DNA from: Bacillota bacterium
GTDB lineage: Bacteria; Bacillota_I; Bacilli_A; Erysipelotrichales; Erysipelotrichaceae
NCBI GenBank assembly: GCA_023249475.1
Contig: JAHFCO010000005.1
Coordinates: 10,870 to 74,869, forward strand
Length of the DNA stretch: 64,000 nucleotides
Reading direction: 5' to 3'
Made by a program: the position numbers and the translations under genes. Of the stretch, positions 43,400 to 50,274 are shown in pieces. The stretch's first letter is position 1. Each line of letters opens with the position of its first letter. Under the pieces are notes generated by a model. It did no database searches and was not told where the DNA came from. It saw nothing but the letters and a program-made list of their open reading frames with translations.

Positions 43400-43427
43400 C
43401 AAAAAAAATGAAGCTTTTGGCTTCATT
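43400..43427 (-). terminator. Terminator after apbE (minus strand)
   Basis: AATGAAGC-loop-GCTTCATT, followed on the minus strand by TTTTTTT. Confidence 0.75.
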
Positions 43428-44547
43428 CGTTGTATAAGCGGGAGTAAGGTTTGATGTTTTCGGAGTGCACCAGCGAGAATTCACCGACGTCGATGGCCTG
43501 CGTCCCGGCGGGTTGCATGCCTTTATCATAGACCCAGACGGCACCCATGAAGACATCGGGATGGTCTTCGTTGAACTTCTCCAGGAAGGCGAGGGCTTGG
43601 TCGTAGGGAAGGATGAAGAGGGGTTTCGCCAAGGTGTCCGCCAGACCGGAATCCTCGATCAAGATCGTCACCGAGCGCGCCTGACGCGCGGGATAGAGCG
43701 TGGAAGGATCGATCAAGTGGTGATAGACCACATCGTCGGGTCCGATATAATAGCGCTGGTAATCGCCGGACGTGACGACGGACATCGATTTGTCCGCATA
43801 GAGGGTATCCAGCGATTCGGAGGTGTTTTCGATATCGGGGGATTGGATTCCGACCGCCCATTTCGCCCCGTCGGGTTTCGTGTTGATCAAGCGGACGTTC
43901 CCGCCCGCGTTGACGATGCCGGCCTTCAACCCTTCCTCGACAAGCAAACGGGCGACGATTTCGGTCGCGAAGCCTTTGGCGATCCCGCCGACATCCAAAC
44001 TGGAACAAGCGTTGTTGATATAGACGGTCTTAGCGGATTCATCGATTTCGACGAACTGCCATCCCGTGCAGACGTTCGCTTCTTCAAGCAAATGAAGGGG
44101 AGGGACTTCGCCCGGCTTGCCGTCGGAGTTATCGGCCTGGCCCATGTCGCGATACTCATGCCAGATTTCAAGCACGGAACCCATGGTGACGTTGAACGAC
44201 CCGCCGGACGGCTCGTACCATTCCTTCGCCAGTTTCAGCATGTCGAGGATCGCCTGGTCGACGACGACCGGGGCGATCCCGGCGTTGTCGTTGATGGTCT
44301 TGATGTTGTTGACCCCATCATAATCGTTGTATTTGTCGAAAAGTTCGTTCAACCGGGTGAACTCGTTTTTCATGATTTCAAAATAAGCGTCGAACTCCGC
44401 TTTGTCCTTGGTATATCCGATCAAGGTGATGATCGTATCAAAACCGGCTTCGATGGTCTGATTGGAATATTTCGTGAGGGTTTGCGGCTTCGTACACCCG
44501 GATAAGAGCGCGATCACCAACAAAAAACTTAGTGCTTTTTTTAGCAT
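43423..44547 (-). CDS. apbE: FAD:protein FMN transferase ApbE, lipoprotein
   Basis: 374 aa. Lipobox LLSGC. ApbE-like motifs (LDVGGIAKGFA, VTSGDYQRY). Confidence 0.88.
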   Translation of the reverse strand: MLKKALSFLLVIALLSGCTKPQTLTKYSNQTIEAGFDTIITLIGYTKDKAEFDAYFEIMKNEFTRLNELFDKYNDYDGVNNIKTINDNAGIAPVVVDQAILDMLKLAKEWYEPSGGSFNVTMGSVLEIWHEYRDMGQADNSDGKPGEVPPLHLLEEANVCTGWQFVEIDESAKTVYINNACSSLDVGGIAKGFATEIVARLLVEEGLKAGIVNAGGNVRLINTKPDGAKWAVGIQSPDIENTSESLDTLYADKSMSVVTSGDYQRYYIGPDDVVYHHLIDPSTLYPARQARSVTILIEDSGLADTLAKPLFILPYDQALAFLEKFNEDHPDVFMGAVWVYDKGMQPAGTQAIDVGEFSLVHSENIKPYSRLYNE

Positions 44548-44705: not shown

Positions 44706-45998
44706 ATGTCAATATGGATCGGCGCGATGCAAAAGCATCTCGAGGGACATAAGGGATTGACGGATCATAACGAAATCGTACGCGTCGACGCGGGGAAGTT
44801 CGTCTATATTCCGTTGATGAGTATGTTCTCCACAAATATTGAAGTCCTCGTCAAAGAAGGGGACAGTGTGAAGGTAGGGACGATGATCGCGAAACGCAAC
44901 GATCATATGACCGTACCGTTTTTCTCTTCGGTTTCAGGGAAGGTCGTCGGGAAACAGACGATCATGCATGCGGTGTTGAAACCGCTTGAACATCTGGTGA
45001 TCGAAAACGACGGCTTGTATGAAAAAGAACAACCCTTCTCCCCGATCGACTTCGAAAAAGCGACACGGGAAGAATTGGTCGATTTCATGATGAACGCCGG
45101 GATCGTCGGATGCGGCGGAGCCGGTTTCCCCACGTATATGAAATATAAGAATCCGCAGAACATTTCGACCTTGATCATCAACGCGGTGGAGTGCGAACCG
45201 TACATCACCGCGGATTATCGCGAGATTTCCAACAACATCGATGATTTGGTATTGGGCGTCAAGGCGATGCTGAAACTCAGCACCGCGAAGGAAGCCTGGA
45301 TCGCCATCAAATCCCCGAAGAAGGAACTGATCGCGAAAGTACGCGCCGCCTTGGTCGGCGTGTCCGGCATCGTCGTCAAGGAAGTCCCCGACGTGTATCC
45401 GATGGGTTGGGAGCGTACCTTGGTGTATCAATTGCTGAAAAAGCGCTATGACCGTCTGCCTTCGGAAATCGGATGCATCGTCAATAACGCGACGACCGCG
45501 ATCGCGTTTGCGAAAGCGATCCGCACCGGGATGCCGATCGTCGAGAAGACTTTGACCATCAGCGGCAACGGCATCAAAAACCCGGCCAACGTCAACGTTC
45601 CGGTCGGGGTGAAAACCGCTGAAATCGTCGCCAAACTCGGCGGGTATGCAATCGAAGACGTCCTGTTGATCGCGGGCGGACCGATGATGGGGAAAACCAT
45701 CCCCAACGACCAGTTCGTCGTCACGCCGTACGGGAATGCCGTCACCATCTTGAAGACGGAAAAAATCGATTCGGTCGCCTGTCTGCGTTGCGGACGCTGC
45801 AACGACACCTGTCCCGCGGGGTTGTTGCCGGTACGCATCAACAACGCCGAGCAAGCCGCGGATTTGGACACCATCGTCAAACTCCGTGCGGACCAATGCA
45901 TCGAATGCGGATTGTGCACCTATGTCTGTCCTTCCAAACTGGATGTGGCCGAAGGGGTTCGCCGTGCGAAACGTATTCTTCAGTTGAAAAAGAAATAG
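44706..45998 (+). CDS. rnfC: Rnf complex subunit C
   Basis: 430 aa. GIVGCGGAGFPT and two 4Fe-4S motifs (CLRCGRCNDTCP, CIECGLCTYVCP). Confidence 0.92.
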   Translation: MSIWIGAMQKHLEGHKGLTDHNEIVRVDAGKFVYIPLMSMFSTNIEVLVKEGDSVKVGTMIAKRNDHMTVPFFSSVSGKVVGKQTIMHAVLKPLEHLVIENDGLYEKEQPFSPIDFEKATREELVDFMMNAGIVGCGGAGFPTYMKYKNPQNISTLIINAVECEPYITADYREISNNIDDLVLGVKAMLKLSTAKEAWIAIKSPKKELIAKVRAALVGVSGIVVKEVPDVYPMGWERTLVYQLLKKRYDRLPSEIGCIVNNATTAIAFAKAIRTGMPIVEKTLTISGNGIKNPANVNVPVGVKTAEIVAKLGGYAIEDVLLIAGGPMMGKTIPNDQFVVTPYGNAVTILKTEKIDSVACLRCGRCNDTCPAGLLPVRINNAEQAADLDTIVKLRADQCIECGLCTYVCPSKLDVAEGVRRAKRILQLKKK

Positions 45999-46010
45999 GA
46001 GGAACGAACC

Positions 46011-47504
46011 ATGAAATTCACTTTCCGTGTGTCCCCGAACTATCGGGACCAATTGAGCACGGGTCGGATCATGCGTGATTTGACCATCGGCTTGGGCGTC
46101 ATCTATGCGTTCGCCCTTGCCTACTACTTTACGCAATACAGCAGCAATTACGGCATCCACGCCCTCGGGCTGATGGCGACCTCGTTGATCGTCGCCTTCC
46201 TCACCGAAGTGGCCTTCGCCTATTTCACCAAAAAGAAGGTTAAGACGCATCTCTTGGGATCTTACCCTTGGGTCACGGCGATCATCCTGACCTTGATGGT
46301 CCCCATCGCGACGTCCTACTTCGCCTTGGGTTTCGGTACGTTCTTCGCGATTTTCTTCGGAAAACTCGTGTTCGGCGGATTCGGACAAAACATCTTCAAC
46401 CCCGCGGCCGCCGGTCGCGCCGCGATGCTTGCATCGTTCGCAGGGGTCGCCGTCACGGACATCACGACGTCCGCCACGCCGACCGCCTCGATCGCCCAGC
46501 TTGGCTGGATGATCGACAAACCCGAAGCGGTCACGAAATTCCTCGACCAATTCGGCGGTTTGCAGAACATGTTCTTGGGACTTTATCCCGGTGCCTTGGG
46601 CGAAACGTCCAAAGTCCTGATCCTTGTGGTCATGGTGTTCCTGATCATCCGCAAGGTCATCGACTGGCGCATCCCCGTCTTCTACCTTTCCACCGTCTTC
46701 GTATTGGCCAGCCTCATCGCCGTATCCAAAGGCATGGGTTTCTGGTATCCCTTGTTCCATCTTTCCACCGGAGGCTTGGTCTTCGGCGCCGTCTTCATGG
46801 CGACCGACCCCGTCACCAACCCGACATCCGCCAGCGGACGCACCTTGTTCGCGATCGGCTTGGGGATTTTGACGGTCTTGATCCGCGTGAAGGCGAACCT
46901 GCCGGAAGGCGTTCTGTACTCCATCTTATTGATGAACATGCTGACCCCGTCCATCGAGTTGTTGACCGACGGATGGCAGATCAAGAATGTTAAGAAATAT
47001 GCGATTTCCTTCGCGTCGTTATCCTTGATCGGGATCCTCTTGGTTTTCGGGGTTTCCACCACGATGAGTTATAAAGCCCCGGTCGTCCCTGAAGAACCGA
47101 CCATCACCTTGGGTGATCCGGTCGGGATTTTCTCCGATGAAACGGCGCTTGCCCCGGCGACCGTGACCGACAAGGTCACCGAAGGGGACATCGTCACCTT
47201 GACCGTCTCCTCCAAAGGGTATGCGGTGTTGCAGGACGACCATAGCGAAGACCCCCAGCCCAACGTCTTGATCGTCAAGATCGATACCGTGAAGCAGGAA
47301 GTCGTAAGCGTCGCCTATGCGACCTTCAGCGATACGACGAACATCGGGGACAAGACGAAAAATGCGAAGTTCCTCGACCAGTTCGCAGGCTTGTCGATCG
47401 TCGATGAAGCCGCCGAAGTCGATGTTGTTTCCGGTGCGACCTATACCTCGGTCTCCGTCGCCCGCGCAGTCCGTGCGGCCATCGAAGCCGTATTGGCACA
47501 ATAA
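46011..47504 (+). CDS. rnfD: Rnf complex subunit D fused to a C-terminal extra TM helix plus an FMN_bind-like domain
   Basis: 497 aa. NqrB/RnfD core (GGFGQNIFNPAAAGRA, DITTSATP, ATDPVT), then YAISFASLSLIGILLVFGV, then a ~130-aa domain ending VDVVSGATYTS. Confidence 0.9.
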   Translation: MKFTFRVSPNYRDQLSTGRIMRDLTIGLGVIYAFALAYYFTQYSSNYGIHALGLMATSLIVAFLTEVAFAYFTKKKVKTHLLGSYPWVTAIILTLMVPIATSYFALGFGTFFAIFFGKLVFGGFGQNIFNPAAAGRAAMLASFAGVAVTDITTSATPTASIAQLGWMIDKPEAVTKFLDQFGGLQNMFLGLYPGALGETSKVLILVVMVFLIIRKVIDWRIPVFYLSTVFVLASLIAVSKGMGFWYPLFHLSTGGLVFGAVFMATDPVTNPTSASGRTLFAIGLGILTVLIRVKANLPEGVLYSILLMNMLTPSIELLTDGWQIKNVKKYAISFASLSLIGILLVFGVSTTMSYKAPVVPEEPTITLGDPVGIFSDETALAPATVTDKVTEGDIVTLTVSSKGYAVLQDDHSEDPQPNVLIVKIDTVKQEVVSVAYATFSDTTNIGDKTKNAKFLDQFAGLSIVDEAAEVDVVSGATYTSVSVARAVRAAIEAVLAQ

Positions 47505-47514
47505 GGAGGGCAAC

Positions 47515-48456
47515 ATGAAAAAAGCACTCTATTTAGCAGCGTTTCTGGCGCTGACAAGCGCCTTGGCCGGCGCCGTGTTGGCCGGTGTGAACTCCCTCAC
47601 CGCGCCGATCATCAATGATCGCGCCATCGCCGCCGTCAAAGCGACCTTGCAGGAGTTCTTCCCGCAAGCCGATGAATTCTCCGAATTGGATTTCGAAGAT
47701 GAAACCGGACTCATCACCAACGTCTATCAGGCCAAAGACGCAGGCTATGCCTACAACGTCAAGGTTCAAGGATATAAGGATGTGATCACCTTCGTGGTCG
47801 CGTTCTCCGAAGATGCCGAAATCGTCGGATTCAAAATCACCTTCATCAACGATACCCCGGGTATCGGAAGCCGCGTCGGCGAAGATGAGTTCAGCAACGG
47901 TGTCATCGGAAAAGGCAGCACCGATGCGATCGCCACGCTGTCCGGAGCCACCGTTTCATCGAGCTCGGTCGTTAAAGGCATCAACGCGGCGAAAGCGCAT
48001 TTCAACGCGATGAAAGGCATCAAGGATGACGGAACGTCCGTTCCCGATCCCGTCGAGCCCGTCATCACGCTGGGCGAACCCGTCGTGATCGTCTCCGATG
48101 CGACCGCGACTTCCCCGGCCGAAATCCTGGAGAAGACGACCGATGGCAACATCACCACCTACCGCGTCTCCGCCAAAGGCTATGCGGTGTTGGAAGACGA
48201 ATATAGCGAAGACCCCAAACCCAATGTCTACGTCATCAAGATCGACGATACCGCCAATACGGTGGTCAGCGTCGCGTATGAAACTTTCAGCGATACCGAG
48301 AACATCGGGGACAAGACGGATTCCGAAACGTTCTTGAAACAGTTCGAAGGCTTATCGTTGAGTGACGCCACCGCGTCGGTCGATGTCGTGACCGGAGCGA
48401 CCTATACATCCATCAGTGCCGCCCGTGCTTTACGCGCGGTCGTCGAAAGCCGATAG
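47515..48456 (+). CDS. rnfG: Rnf complex subunit G with two FMN_bind domains
   Basis: Within ORF 47317..48456. ATG 47515 follows AAGGAGGG. N-terminal anchor, first domain with LSGATVSS, second domain with VDVVTGATYTS. Confidence 0.85.
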   Translation: MKKALYLAAFLALTSALAGAVLAGVNSLTAPIINDRAIAAVKATLQEFFPQADEFSELDFEDETGLITNVYQAKDAGYAYNVKVQGYKDVITFVVAFSEDAEIVGFKITFINDTPGIGSRVGEDEFSNGVIGKGSTDAIATLSGATVSSSSVVKGINAAKAHFNAMKGIKDDGTSVPDPVEPVITLGEPVVIVSDATATSPAEILEKTTDGNITTYRVSAKGYAVLEDEYSEDPKPNVYVIKIDDTANTVVSVAYETFSDTENIGDKTDSETFLKQFEGLSLSDATASVDVVTGATYTSISAARALRAVVESR

Positions 48457-48469
48457 GGAGGAGAACCAC

Positions 48470-49108
48470 ATGAAAAAATTCTTCACCGGTTTGATTTTGG
48501 ATAATCCGGTCTTCGGATTGTTCCTTGGGATTTGTTCCACCCTGGCGATCACCATCAACCTCAACAATGCGTTGGGCATGGGGGTTTCCGTCATTTTGAT
48601 TCTTATCGCATCCAATGTCATCATCTCGGCGATCCGCAAAATCACCCCCGATGAAATCCGCATCCCGGTCTACATCGTGGTCATCGCGACCTTGGTCAAG
48701 GCGGTCGAACTGCTGATCAAGGCCTATGCGCCGGCGATCGACGTCGCCCTTGGCGTATTCATCCCCTTGATCGTCGTCAACTGCATCATTCTCGGCCGCG
48801 CCGAAGCCTTCGCCTCGAAAAACGGGATGTTGGCATCCGCCTGGGACGGATTCACCATGGGGGTCGGCTATATCCTTGGCTTGGTCGTCATGTCGCTGAT
48901 CCGTGAAATCCTCGCGACCGGCATCGTCGAAATGGTCAACCCGTTCAACGACGCCTTGATTTTCAGCGTTCGATTGGTCCCGGCCGAATTCAGCATCAGT
49001 ATGTTCAGTCAACCGGTCGGCGCGTTCTTGACCTTCGCGGTCATCGCCGCGGGTGTCGCGGCCTTCCGCGATAAAGTCGAAGCGCAGACGAAGAAGGAGG
49101 CGAAGTAA
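48470..49108 (+). CDS. rnfE: Rnf complex subunit E
   Basis: Within ORF 48416..49108. NPVFGLFLGICSTLA and PLIVVNCIILGRAEAFA. Confidence 0.92.
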   Translation: MKKFFTGLILDNPVFGLFLGICSTLAITINLNNALGMGVSVILILIASNVIISAIRKITPDEIRIPVYIVVIATLVKAVELLIKAYAPAIDVALGVFIPLIVVNCIILGRAEAFASKNGMLASAWDGFTMGVGYILGLVVMSLIREILATGIVEMVNPFNDALIFSVRLVPAEFSISMFSQPVGAFLTFAVIAAGVAAFRDKVEAQTKKEAK

Positions 49109-49109
49109 G

Positions 49110-49685
49110 ATGGATAAACTATTTGCACTCTTCATGACGGCTTTCCTCATCAACAACATCATCCTGACGAAGTTCTTGGGGATGTGTCCGTTCTTGGGGG
49201 TTTCCAGACAACGCAGTTCCGCGATCGGGATGGGGTTGGCGGTCATCTTCGTCATCCTCGGCGCCTCGATCTTCACCTATGTCCTCTATTATTCCGTCCT
49301 GGTTCCCCTGGAACTCGAATACATGGACCTGATCACCTTCATCTTGGTCATCGCGGCGTTCGTCCAGTTCGTCGAATTGGTCCTGAAAAAATATTCCCCC
49401 GCGCTCTACAAAGCGTTGGGGATCTACCTGCCGTTGATCACCACCAACTGCGTCGTCTTGTACGTCACCTTGGAAAACATCACCAACAAGTTCGATTTCG
49501 TCGAAATGATCGTCTATTCCATCGCCGTCCCGGCGGGTTTCGCGTTGATGTTGTTCATCTTCTCGACCATCCGCGAACGCCTGGATATCGCGACCACGCC
49601 GAAGCCGTTCCGCGGCAACGCGCTTGCCTTGGTCCTCGCGGCCATCATGGCCTTGGCCTTCAGCGGCTTGGCCGGATTGGTCTAG
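49110..49685 (+). CDS. rnfA: Rnf complex subunit A
   Basis: Within ORF 49053..49685. NNIILTKFLGMCPFLGVS and LPLITTNCVVL. Confidence 0.92.
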   Translation: MDKLFALFMTAFLINNIILTKFLGMCPFLGVSRQRSSAIGMGLAVIFVILGASIFTYVLYYSVLVPLELEYMDLITFILVIAAFVQFVELVLKKYSPALYKALGIYLPLITTNCVVLYVTLENITNKFDFVEMIVYSIAVPAGFALMLFIFSTIRERLDIATTPKPFRGNALALVLAAIMALAFSGLAGLV

Positions 49686-49688
49686 TCC

Positions 49689-49871
49689 ATGGAAGCGGCA
49701 CTGTATATCGGGGCGCTTGGCGCATTCTACGCCGTCGCCTATTATCTCAACCACAAGACGCCGGTACCGGCGGGATGTGAGGATTTGAAAGCAAGTTGTA
49801 ACGGATGCGCCATCGGTTCTTGTGGCAACCATCCTTCACATCAGATAGTCAAGGAGGAAAACCGCGCATGA
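49689..49871 (+). CDS. 60-aa membrane-anchored Cys-rich peptide encoded between rnfA and rnfB
   Basis: One TM helix (AALYIGALGAFYAVAYYL) then C-x6-C-x2-C-x4-C. The start is 3 nt after the rnfA stop and the stop overlaps the rnfB ATG (ATGA). Confidence 0.4.
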   Translation: MEAALYIGALGAFYAVAYYLNHKTPVPAGCEDLKASCNGCAIGSCGNHPSHQIVKEENRA

Positions 49872-50173
49872 TTCAGGCAATCTTAATGATGTTGGTGGTC
49901 GGGGGCGTCCTCGGTTTGGTCTTAGGGATCGCCGGGATCTACTTCAAGGTCGAAGTCGACCATCGTTTGGAAACGGTGACCACGATGCTTCCGGGATACA
50001 ACTGCGGAGCCTGCGGCTTCCCGGGATGTTCCGGATTAGCGACGGCGATCGTCGACGGGAAAGCCACTTCGGCTTCCTGCAAACCGGCGAAACCCGAACA
50101 ACGCGAACGCATCACGACCTACATGGCGACCGGAGAAGATCCTTTCGCAAAAGTCGAACCTCAAAAAGCATAA
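49868..50173 (+). CDS. rnfB: Rnf subunit B, N-terminal part only (membrane anchor plus RnfB-type Fe-S domain); no ferredoxin-like domains
   Basis: Within ORF 49805..50173. 101 aa, ATG after AAGGAGGAAAA. Cys spacing C-x2-C-x4-C-x16-C. A terminator follows immediately. Confidence 0.75.
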   Translation: MIQAILMMLVVGGVLGLVLGIAGIYFKVEVDHRLETVTTMLPGYNCGACGFPGCSGLATAIVDGKATSASCKPAKPEQRERITTYMATGEDPFAKVEPQKA

Positions 50174-50178
50174 GTCGA

Positions 50179-50207
50179 AGATACAGGAAATTCCTGTATC
50201 TTTTTTC
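50179..50207 (+). terminator. Terminator of the rnf operon
   Basis: AGATACAGG-AAATT-CCTGTATCT followed by TTTTT. Confidence 0.88.
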
Positions 50208-50274
50208 ATTGTGAAATGATACTGTATTTTCATCAAGAGAATGCTAAAATAAAACCGATTTCAAAGGAGAAACT

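Follow-up and report, generated by a model that had tools for sequence, protein, structure and literature searches.

How does an Rnf complex take up electrons when its RnfB subunit ends after one small cluster-binding domain, and what does the extra small gene placed directly before rnfB contribute? These questions are raised by the rnf operon in a 64,000-nucleotide stretch of DNA from a Bacillota bacterium of the Erysipelotrichaceae (GCA_023249475.1, contig JAHFCO010000005.1), referred to below as the window, whose numbering is used for all positions unless another contig is named. In anaerobes, Rnf is a central machine for conserving energy and balancing the redox state, and current structural models of it have six subunits and a multi-cluster RnfB. 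Searches against Pfam and NCBIfam showed an operon on the plus strand in the order rnfC-rnfD-rnfG-rnfE-rnfA-mini-ORF-rnfB, in which the mini-ORF (ORF, open reading frame) encodes a small cysteine-rich protein, here called the mini-protein. We propose, with a probability of about 0.5, that the mini-protein binds a metal or an Fe-S cluster and acts as a partner on the input side of the complex, with which it is co-translated and co-assembled; it would then be a seventh subunit.

The mini-protein gene between rnfA and rnfB

The mini-protein gene (49689-49871, plus strand, 60 codons) was recognized from its reading frame, its conservation, its ratio of nonsynonymous to synonymous substitution rates (dN/dS), and its adjacency. 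The ATG at 49689 follows the rnfA stop codon (TAG, 49683-49685) after a gap of 3 nucleotides, and the stop codon of the mini-ORF (TGA, 49869-49871) overlaps the start codon of rnfB (ATG, 49868-49870) in the form ATGA. The AAGGAGG Shine-Dalgarno sequence of rnfB, read from the sequence at 49851-49857 (plus strand), lies in the last codons of the mini-ORF. In the encoded protein (60 residues, 6.3 kDa), a conserved N-x2-T-x2-P linker connects one transmembrane (TM) helix (residues 2-23) with a cysteine motif, C-x6-C-x2-C-x4-C, formed by Cys 30, 37, 40, and 45 and followed by H48-P49. This layout, with one helix, the four-cysteine motif, and tight coupling on both sides, had been described in an earlier note on this DNA and was confirmed. 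A perfect 14-nucleotide palindrome, CGCCGGTACCGGCG, was also present within the gene at 49759-49772, over conserved T-P-V-P-A-G codons; it was picked up by a scan as a minus-strand terminator-like hairpin and is probably a by-product of the conserved Pro and Gly codons.

The conservation of the mini-ORF was analyzed in relatives, since the earlier note had named its lack as a reason to doubt the gene, and the ORF proved to be conserved. Residues N21, T24, P27, C30, C37, C40, and C45 were invariant in 24 relatives from the family and order, with a mean column identity of 47%, and the dN/dS values against congeners (0.03-0.13) were as low as those of rnfB (0.05-0.2). The C-x2-C-x4-C triad was invariant in 34 mini-protein sequences, while the four-cysteine feature was restricted to the family and order. 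AlphaFold2, applied to the mini-protein alone, gave a confident helix over residues 2-23. In 45 sequences, the net charge averaged about +1.1 directly behind the helix and about 0 on its N-terminal side. Because positive charge follows the helix, the cysteine motif is predicted to lie on the cytoplasmic side, about 10 residues from the membrane, and it is on this side that the RnfB domain docks onto RnfA/RnfE. From such features we infer the metal binding, the topology, and the role of the mini-protein.

The distribution of the mini-protein was then compared with that of short RnfB. The mini-protein was found in 35 of 41 genomes of relatives (33 of the 39 of good quality), always before a short rnfB in the order rnfA-mini-rnfB. 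Across the class (Bacilli in the GTDB, with the Erysipelotrichaceae, Ca. Izemoplasma, Ca. Onthovivens, and numerous relatives with small genomes) it was present in 150 of 300 genomes, and its holders included Anaerorhabdus, Solobacterium, uncultured Erysipelotrichaceae, Ca. Izemoplasma, Ca. Onthovivens, and 'Bacilli bacterium' metagenome-assembled genomes (MAGs). When the two genome lists were compared by hand, 149 genomes had both the mini-protein and short RnfB, 1 had the mini-protein only, 19 had RnfB only, and about 131 had neither (Fisher p 1.5e-62, a statistic that ignores phylogeny). A profile search of 1.84 billion representatives gave 420 clusters at 50% identity, of which the best 150 were all 49-97 residues long.

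Operon structure was examined at 80 rnfB loci obtained by a pattern scan with one genome per species from many phyla, together with the loci fetched earlier; an RnfB with three or more CxxCxxCxxxC motifs was counted as long. The mini-protein gene lay directly upstream of rnfB in 55 of 60 short-RnfB operons, including one in which the gene is visible but frameshifted, and in 0 of 51 long-RnfB operons. Two other candidate associations were not upheld: a C-terminal 'TPGPDG' tail of RnfB did not co-vary with the presence of the mini-protein, and the extra flavin mononucleotide (FMN)-binding domains of this operon were not linked to the mini-protein or to short RnfB.

One of the short-RnfB operons with a mini-protein belongs to a Spirochaetaceae MAG (JAOPTT010000006.1). 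In a tree of RnfA from 111 operons, its RnfA was nested within the Bacilli-type operons, where its sister was a Bacilli sequence (support 100/100); this placement suggests that the mini-protein and short RnfB were transferred between phyla as a whole unit. The same Spirochaetaceae genome also carries a gene of the RseC family.

At the level of sequence comparison, these data show the mini-ORF to be a real, conserved gene under purifying selection that is co-distributed with short RnfB. The mini-protein is tightly associated with the short-RnfB type of Rnf, although its gene does not always lie next to rnfB and the protein is not obviously indispensable.

The one-cluster RnfB

The rnfB gene (49868-50173, plus strand) is the last gene of the rnfCDGEA(B) operon and is followed directly by an intrinsic terminator (50177-50211, plus strand) with a 12-pair stem (50177-50203), a 3-nucleotide loop, and a T run. 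It encodes a protein of 101 residues (10,606 Da) with an N-terminal TM anchor and a single FeS domain, whose Cys 46, 49, 54, and 71 form the motif C-x2-C-x4-C-x16-C. The Pfam search matched PF04060 (FeS) alone, at residues 41-73 (E 1.2e-13), and no Fer4 family was found in RnfB. The rnfB model TIGR01944 was matched only over profile positions 5-95 of 190, with a score of 61, below the cut-off of 68.7. A C-terminal 2x[4Fe-4S] ferredoxin-like domain was thus not found with Pfam Fer4 models or with TIGR01944, which was only half covered. The gene 3' of the terminator encodes a LytS-type kinase and not a ferredoxin. The size of RnfB, its anchor and motif, the terminator, and the lack of ferredoxin motifs in rnfB and downstream were all as the earlier note had described them.

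RnfB was aligned with the solved chains. It aligned to residues 1-88 of 8ahx_B (Azotobacter) and to the N-terminal approximately 75 residues of 7zc6_B (Clostridium tetanomorphum) and 9eri_B (Acetobacterium woodii). The first three cysteines of RnfB had aligned counterparts in every one of these chains; for the fourth (C71), this was so in 8ahx_B and 9eri_B. Because it aligns to the N-terminal region of the solved chains, the window RnfB is, by homology, exactly the small, flexibly tethered [4Fe-4S] domain of canonical RnfB. Canonical RnfB/RsxB (TIGR01944; 7zc6, 8ahx, 9eri) has the same N-terminal anchor and homologous small flexible [4Fe-4S] domain, but it continues into a C-terminal domain that carries 2-7 [4Fe-4S] clusters and is regarded as the ferredoxin acceptor (PMC12174285); the window RnfB lacks this domain. 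The small domain has been placed between that C-terminal polyferredoxin domain and RnfA/RnfE in a 2025 review of RNF and NQR (PMC12174285).

Next, we investigated whether the short form is a product of decay. All rnfB genes in 26 relatives of the family and order encoded 99-106 residues; full-length RnfB in close relatives, which the earlier note had named as evidence for a recent truncation or frameshift, was looked for and none was found. In the class-wide sample, an RnfB homologue was present in 168 of 301 genomes, with open frames of nearly all 93-135 residues, and public databases hold hundreds of PF04060-only proteins of about 100 residues, labelled '(Fe-S)-binding protein' or 'RnfB', in the Erysipelotrichaceae and Anaerorhabdus. 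A recent truncation or frameshift of rnfB was rejected, as the relatives are all short and no Fer4-coding remnant lies downstream. Since every relative examined has the short form, comparison among relatives indicates that short RnfB is the native, inherited form and not decay.

Some variation was seen inside the class. In six genomes the frames of the RnfB homologues were 177-194 residues long, between the short (about 100 residues) and the long (about 270 residues) forms, and these could represent extended variants or intermediates. Short rnfB was present in two or three copies in several members of one class family (f17) and in one further genome (G058); besides G058, seven genomes had multiple copies. 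G058 carries two complete rnf operons, neither with an adjacent mini-protein gene.

Short RnfB is not new. In Thermotoga maritima, RnfB has a mass of just 10.56 kDa and a single predicted [4Fe-4S] cluster, yet the purified T. maritima Rnf accepts electrons from Clostridium pasteurianum ferredoxin, passes them to NAD+, and pumps Na+ (Kuhns et al. 2020, PMC7414866). The proteins of the class add a very large group of members to this form, which has been shown to work in Thermotoga. The window resembles that system in the size of RnfB (10.6 kDa against 10.56 kDa), in the TM anchor with one predicted [4Fe-4S] cluster, and in the gene order rnfCDGEA...B. The T. maritima complex is a proven ferredoxin:NAD+ Na+ pump. 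However, in the Thermotogota operon examined rnfA is followed directly by rnfB, with no mini-protein, unlike in the window. In the RnfA tree, the short forms of Thermotogota and Brevinematales were placed among long-RnfB operons, and the Bacilli-type operons grouped apart. Because of this placement, RnfB shortening seems to have occurred more than once, and the Thermotogota/Brevinematales case looks independent.

We also analyzed possible electron donors in the same genome. Profile searches and a regular-expression scan of all ORFs found no second RnfB-like protein and no membrane polyferredoxin, which includes the stand-alone polyferredoxin that the earlier note had proposed to look for; the scan gave only ordinary ferredoxin-domain proteins. 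The genome encodes a small 2x[4Fe-4S] ferredoxin, a POR delta-like subunit, and a HydABC-like hydrogenase.

Proposed role of the mini-protein and rival explanations

Under the reading that we propose, the locus would form the electron-entry end of a native Rnf of a 'minimal-input' type that is typical of the class as a whole. RnfB would keep its anchor and its small mobile [4Fe-4S] domain, which in solved complexes passes electrons to the [2Fe-2S] cluster of RnfA/RnfE, and its one cluster would take electrons directly from a soluble ferredoxin or flavodoxin, as in T. maritima; by this analogy, direct reduction of the single RnfB cluster is the most likely route. The complex would still be a ferredoxin:NAD+ oxidoreductase and an ion pump. 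The helix of the mini-protein would sit in the membrane with its motif of three or four cysteines at the cytoplasmic face, where the RnfB domain also lies, and the protein would bind iron or an Fe-S cluster, work with the RnfB and RnfA/RnfE input side, and, as a small subunit, stabilise or relay at the reduced RnfB.

The seventh-subunit reading is preferred because the gene is coupled between two structural genes in most operons and because the unit appears to have been transferred whole. That the cysteine-rich peptide is an added metal- or Fe-S-binding partner, as the earlier note had suggested, is a reasonable reading, as the ORF is conserved and linked to Rnf. A stronger version, in which the mini-protein is a redox-active seventh subunit that holds an Fe-S cluster at the membrane face and forms, together with one-cluster RnfB, the entry site for ferredoxin or flavodoxin, is doubtful; if it were true, the mini-protein would replace the textbook polyferredoxin entry domain in a distinct 'Bacilli-type' class of Rnf.

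Several observations weigh against a seventh subunit. The cysteine tail of the mini-protein alone was modelled by AlphaFold2 with low confidence (predicted local distance difference test, pLDDT, about 60). The first cysteine has been lost in several lineages and distant members keep three, so that the universal core is C-x2-C-x4-C. The co-occurrence counts are not phylogenetically independent, and 19 of 168 short-RnfB genomes lacked the mini-protein at the thresholds used, although one of these has a divergent 40-residue version between rnfA and rnfB, with a TM helix and then C-x5-C-x2-C-x4-C, that was missed by the profile. The rnfA gene abuts rnfB in the short-RnfB operons of one Thermotogota MAG, two Brevinematales MAGs, and two Bacilli MAGs, and the mini-protein is not indispensable for an Rnf with short RnfB, as the T. 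maritima Rnf works and no such gene has been reported there. In two families of the class (f5 and f21), the mini-protein gene is missing from the rnf operon, where rnfA abuts rnfB, and a clear homologue lies elsewhere; such unlinked homologues adjoin genes for dCMP deaminase or for phosphoglucomutase and uracil-DNA glycosylase. Finally, no fusion of the mini-protein to an Rnf subunit was found among the best 150 of the 420 relatives.

Part of this evidence fits a different explanation, in which the mini-protein is a transient maturation factor like NqrM that loads the [2Fe-2S] cluster of RnfA/RnfE, or the RnfB cluster, and then leaves. Kostyrko et al. in 2016 reportedly described NqrM with one TM helix and four conserved cysteines. 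The mini-protein is built like NqrM, a small protein of Fe-S maturation that is bound to the membrane, is needed for the [2Fe-2S] cluster of NqrD/E, and is co-transcribed with nqr (PMC12174285). The likeness extends to the gene setting, as the NqrM gene accompanies the operon of Na+-NQR, the sister complex. Variants with three cysteines would be expected of carriers that share a cluster between chains, and the location of the mini-protein gene away from rnf in some genomes that keep Rnf, the remote profile similarity to the iron-associated FeoB_associated family (given below), and the short-RnfB complexes elsewhere that manage without the mini-protein also favour a maturation factor. However, NqrM is restricted to NQR and has no detectable sequence similarity to the mini-protein, as its model PF04400 matched none of the 24 members even at E<=10. 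The position of the genes also differs: NqrM lies after the structural genes with apbE, whereas the mini-protein gene is translationally coupled between them in 55 of 60 loci. In addition, other Rnf complexes assemble their [2Fe-2S] cluster without such a factor. We consider a maturation factor the next most likely role after a seventh subunit, though in itself somewhat unlikely.

We also analyzed what known families the mini-protein resembles, since it could instead be a general membrane-tethered peptide for handling iron or other metals, of the FeoB-associated kind and only loosely tied to Rnf, for example in iron sensing or delivery. The mini-protein of the window had no match in Pfam, NCBIfam, or PDB profile searches. 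FeoB_associated (PF12669) gave weak matches in 7 of the 24 relatives (best E 0.0018) and none for the window protein, and hhalign of the mini-protein against 16 true FeoB-associated peptides gave a probability of 95.6% (E 1.2e-8, 48 columns), although such short profiles are dominated by the TM helix and cysteines and can match by composition alone. Both kinds of protein are small and single-pass, with a basic stretch and then a cysteine motif, and the motif of PF12669 peptides, whose function is untested, is 'commonly associated with iron binding' (PMC8749426). Some mini-protein homologues also lie in unrelated neighbourhoods. However, the cysteine motif of the mini-protein (C-x5/6-C-x2-C-x4-C) and its N-x2-T-x2-P linker are unlike those of PF12669, where the spacing is Cx3-5Cx2-3Cx6-8C, and the mini-protein is linked to rnf, between rnfA and rnfB, whereas FeoB-associated peptides are linked to feoB. 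Its presence tracks Rnf almost perfectly (149 of 150). A genome-wide PF12669 search found a separate, bona fide FeoB-associated peptide in the same genome at 27000-27203 of contig C10, after feoB. Because the same genomes carry this separate peptide right after feoB, the mini-protein is taken to be distinct from it, and by sequence the Rnf-linked family is at most a distant paralogue. A general iron-handling peptide is therefore improbable as an explanation. The feoB region itself (C10, 24918-27203) consists of feoB (690 residues), a gap of 10 nucleotides, and the gene for the 67-residue cysteine-rich peptide.

That the ferredoxin module is supplied in trans, or that the complex no longer uses ferredoxin and has diverged together with its extra outer FMN domains, is highly improbable: RnfB is genuinely reduced and without any Fer4 domain, as the earlier note had held, and RnfD and RnfG here do have extra FMN_bind modules, but the trans supply suggested there is not needed because the T. 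maritima complex with one-cluster RnfB works with ferredoxin (PMC7414866), no other RnfB-like protein or anchored polyferredoxin is encoded in the genome, the cofactor motifs of RnfC, RnfA, and RnfE are all intact, and relatives with a plain RnfD (about 350 residues) and a single-domain RnfG (six fetched operons) keep both the mini-protein and short RnfB, which contradicts the tie to the FMN domains that the earlier note had drawn.

Two further relationships were tried and rejected. Homology to RseC/MucC/RnfF (PF04246) was rejected with an hhalign probability of 3.6%, and PF04246 was not among the families matched by the 24 mini-protein members. RseC is likewise a small membrane protein with an invariant three-cysteine motif (C-x2-C-x5-C), often beside rnf, but its order is reversed, with a soluble N-terminal cysteine domain and then two TM helices. 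The RseC family was absent from the genome of the window and was found in 1 of 301 class genomes, whereas it was present in short-RnfB genomes of Thermotogota, including Thermotoga, and of Brevinematales. A strict complementarity of RseC and the mini-protein failed, as the Spirochaetaceae genome has both and several Lachnospiraceae with long RnfB lack RseC. The second candidate, an origin of the mini-protein by duplication of the RnfB N-terminus, was rejected since only a 15-residue C-x2-C-x4-C stretch aligned (35%), which is a resemblance of motifs; the cysteine triad in the mini-protein is spaced in the same way as ligands one to three of the RnfB/CFeSP FeS domain.

If the mini-protein is a seventh subunit, as we propose, or a factor of another kind, its function bears on how a minimal RnfB receives electrons, on how [2Fe-2S] clusters are loaded outside NQR, and on which genes should be co-expressed for recombinant complexes. 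Operons for one-cluster RnfB are widespread in the class, nearly always with a seventh gene that is unannotated or called 'hypothetical'. A full-text literature search gave no paper pairing RnfB with Erysipelotrichaceae, the literature searched contained no description of an extra small cysteine-rich gene between rnfA and rnfB, and the flavinylation surveys did not mention the mini-protein. Published genome papers treat such operons as plain and omit the extra gene: the Peloplasma genome paper calls its operon 'rnfCDGEAB as in Clostridia', and its rnf list skips two accession numbers, which may include the mini-protein gene. The mini-protein is apparently an undescribed, class-wide accessory of the short-RnfB form.

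Remaining genes of the locus and genome

The other genes of the operon, all on the plus strand, were assigned by their Pfam and NCBIfam matches. The rnfC gene (44706-45998) is followed by rnfD (46011-47504), which has a C-terminal FMN_bind extension, and by rnfG (47512-48456), which has two FMN_bind regions; the extra modules of RnfD and RnfG (46011-48456) vary among relatives. RnfE (48470-49108) has exactly two cysteines, in GIC and VNC motifs. RnfA (49110-49685, 191 residues) matched TIGR01943 with 230 bits, above the cut-off, and its cysteines C26 (in GMCP) and C114 (in TNC) are at the conserved ligand positions of the intramembrane [2Fe-2S] cluster shared with RnfE. An apbE gene (43423-44547) is divergent from the operon.

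Elsewhere in the genome, the other two ORFs with an FeS domain encode hydrogenase-like sensory proteins, at 4371-5696 of contig C24 and 12095-13759 of contig C11; both carry Fer4 motifs at the N-terminus and the PF04060 FeS domain at the C-terminus. Downstream of one of these genes lie a PHP-like gene and a gene for a histidine-kinase-like ATPase, and downstream of the other a gene for a PP2C-like phosphatase; both sensory proteins look like redox-sensing regulators.

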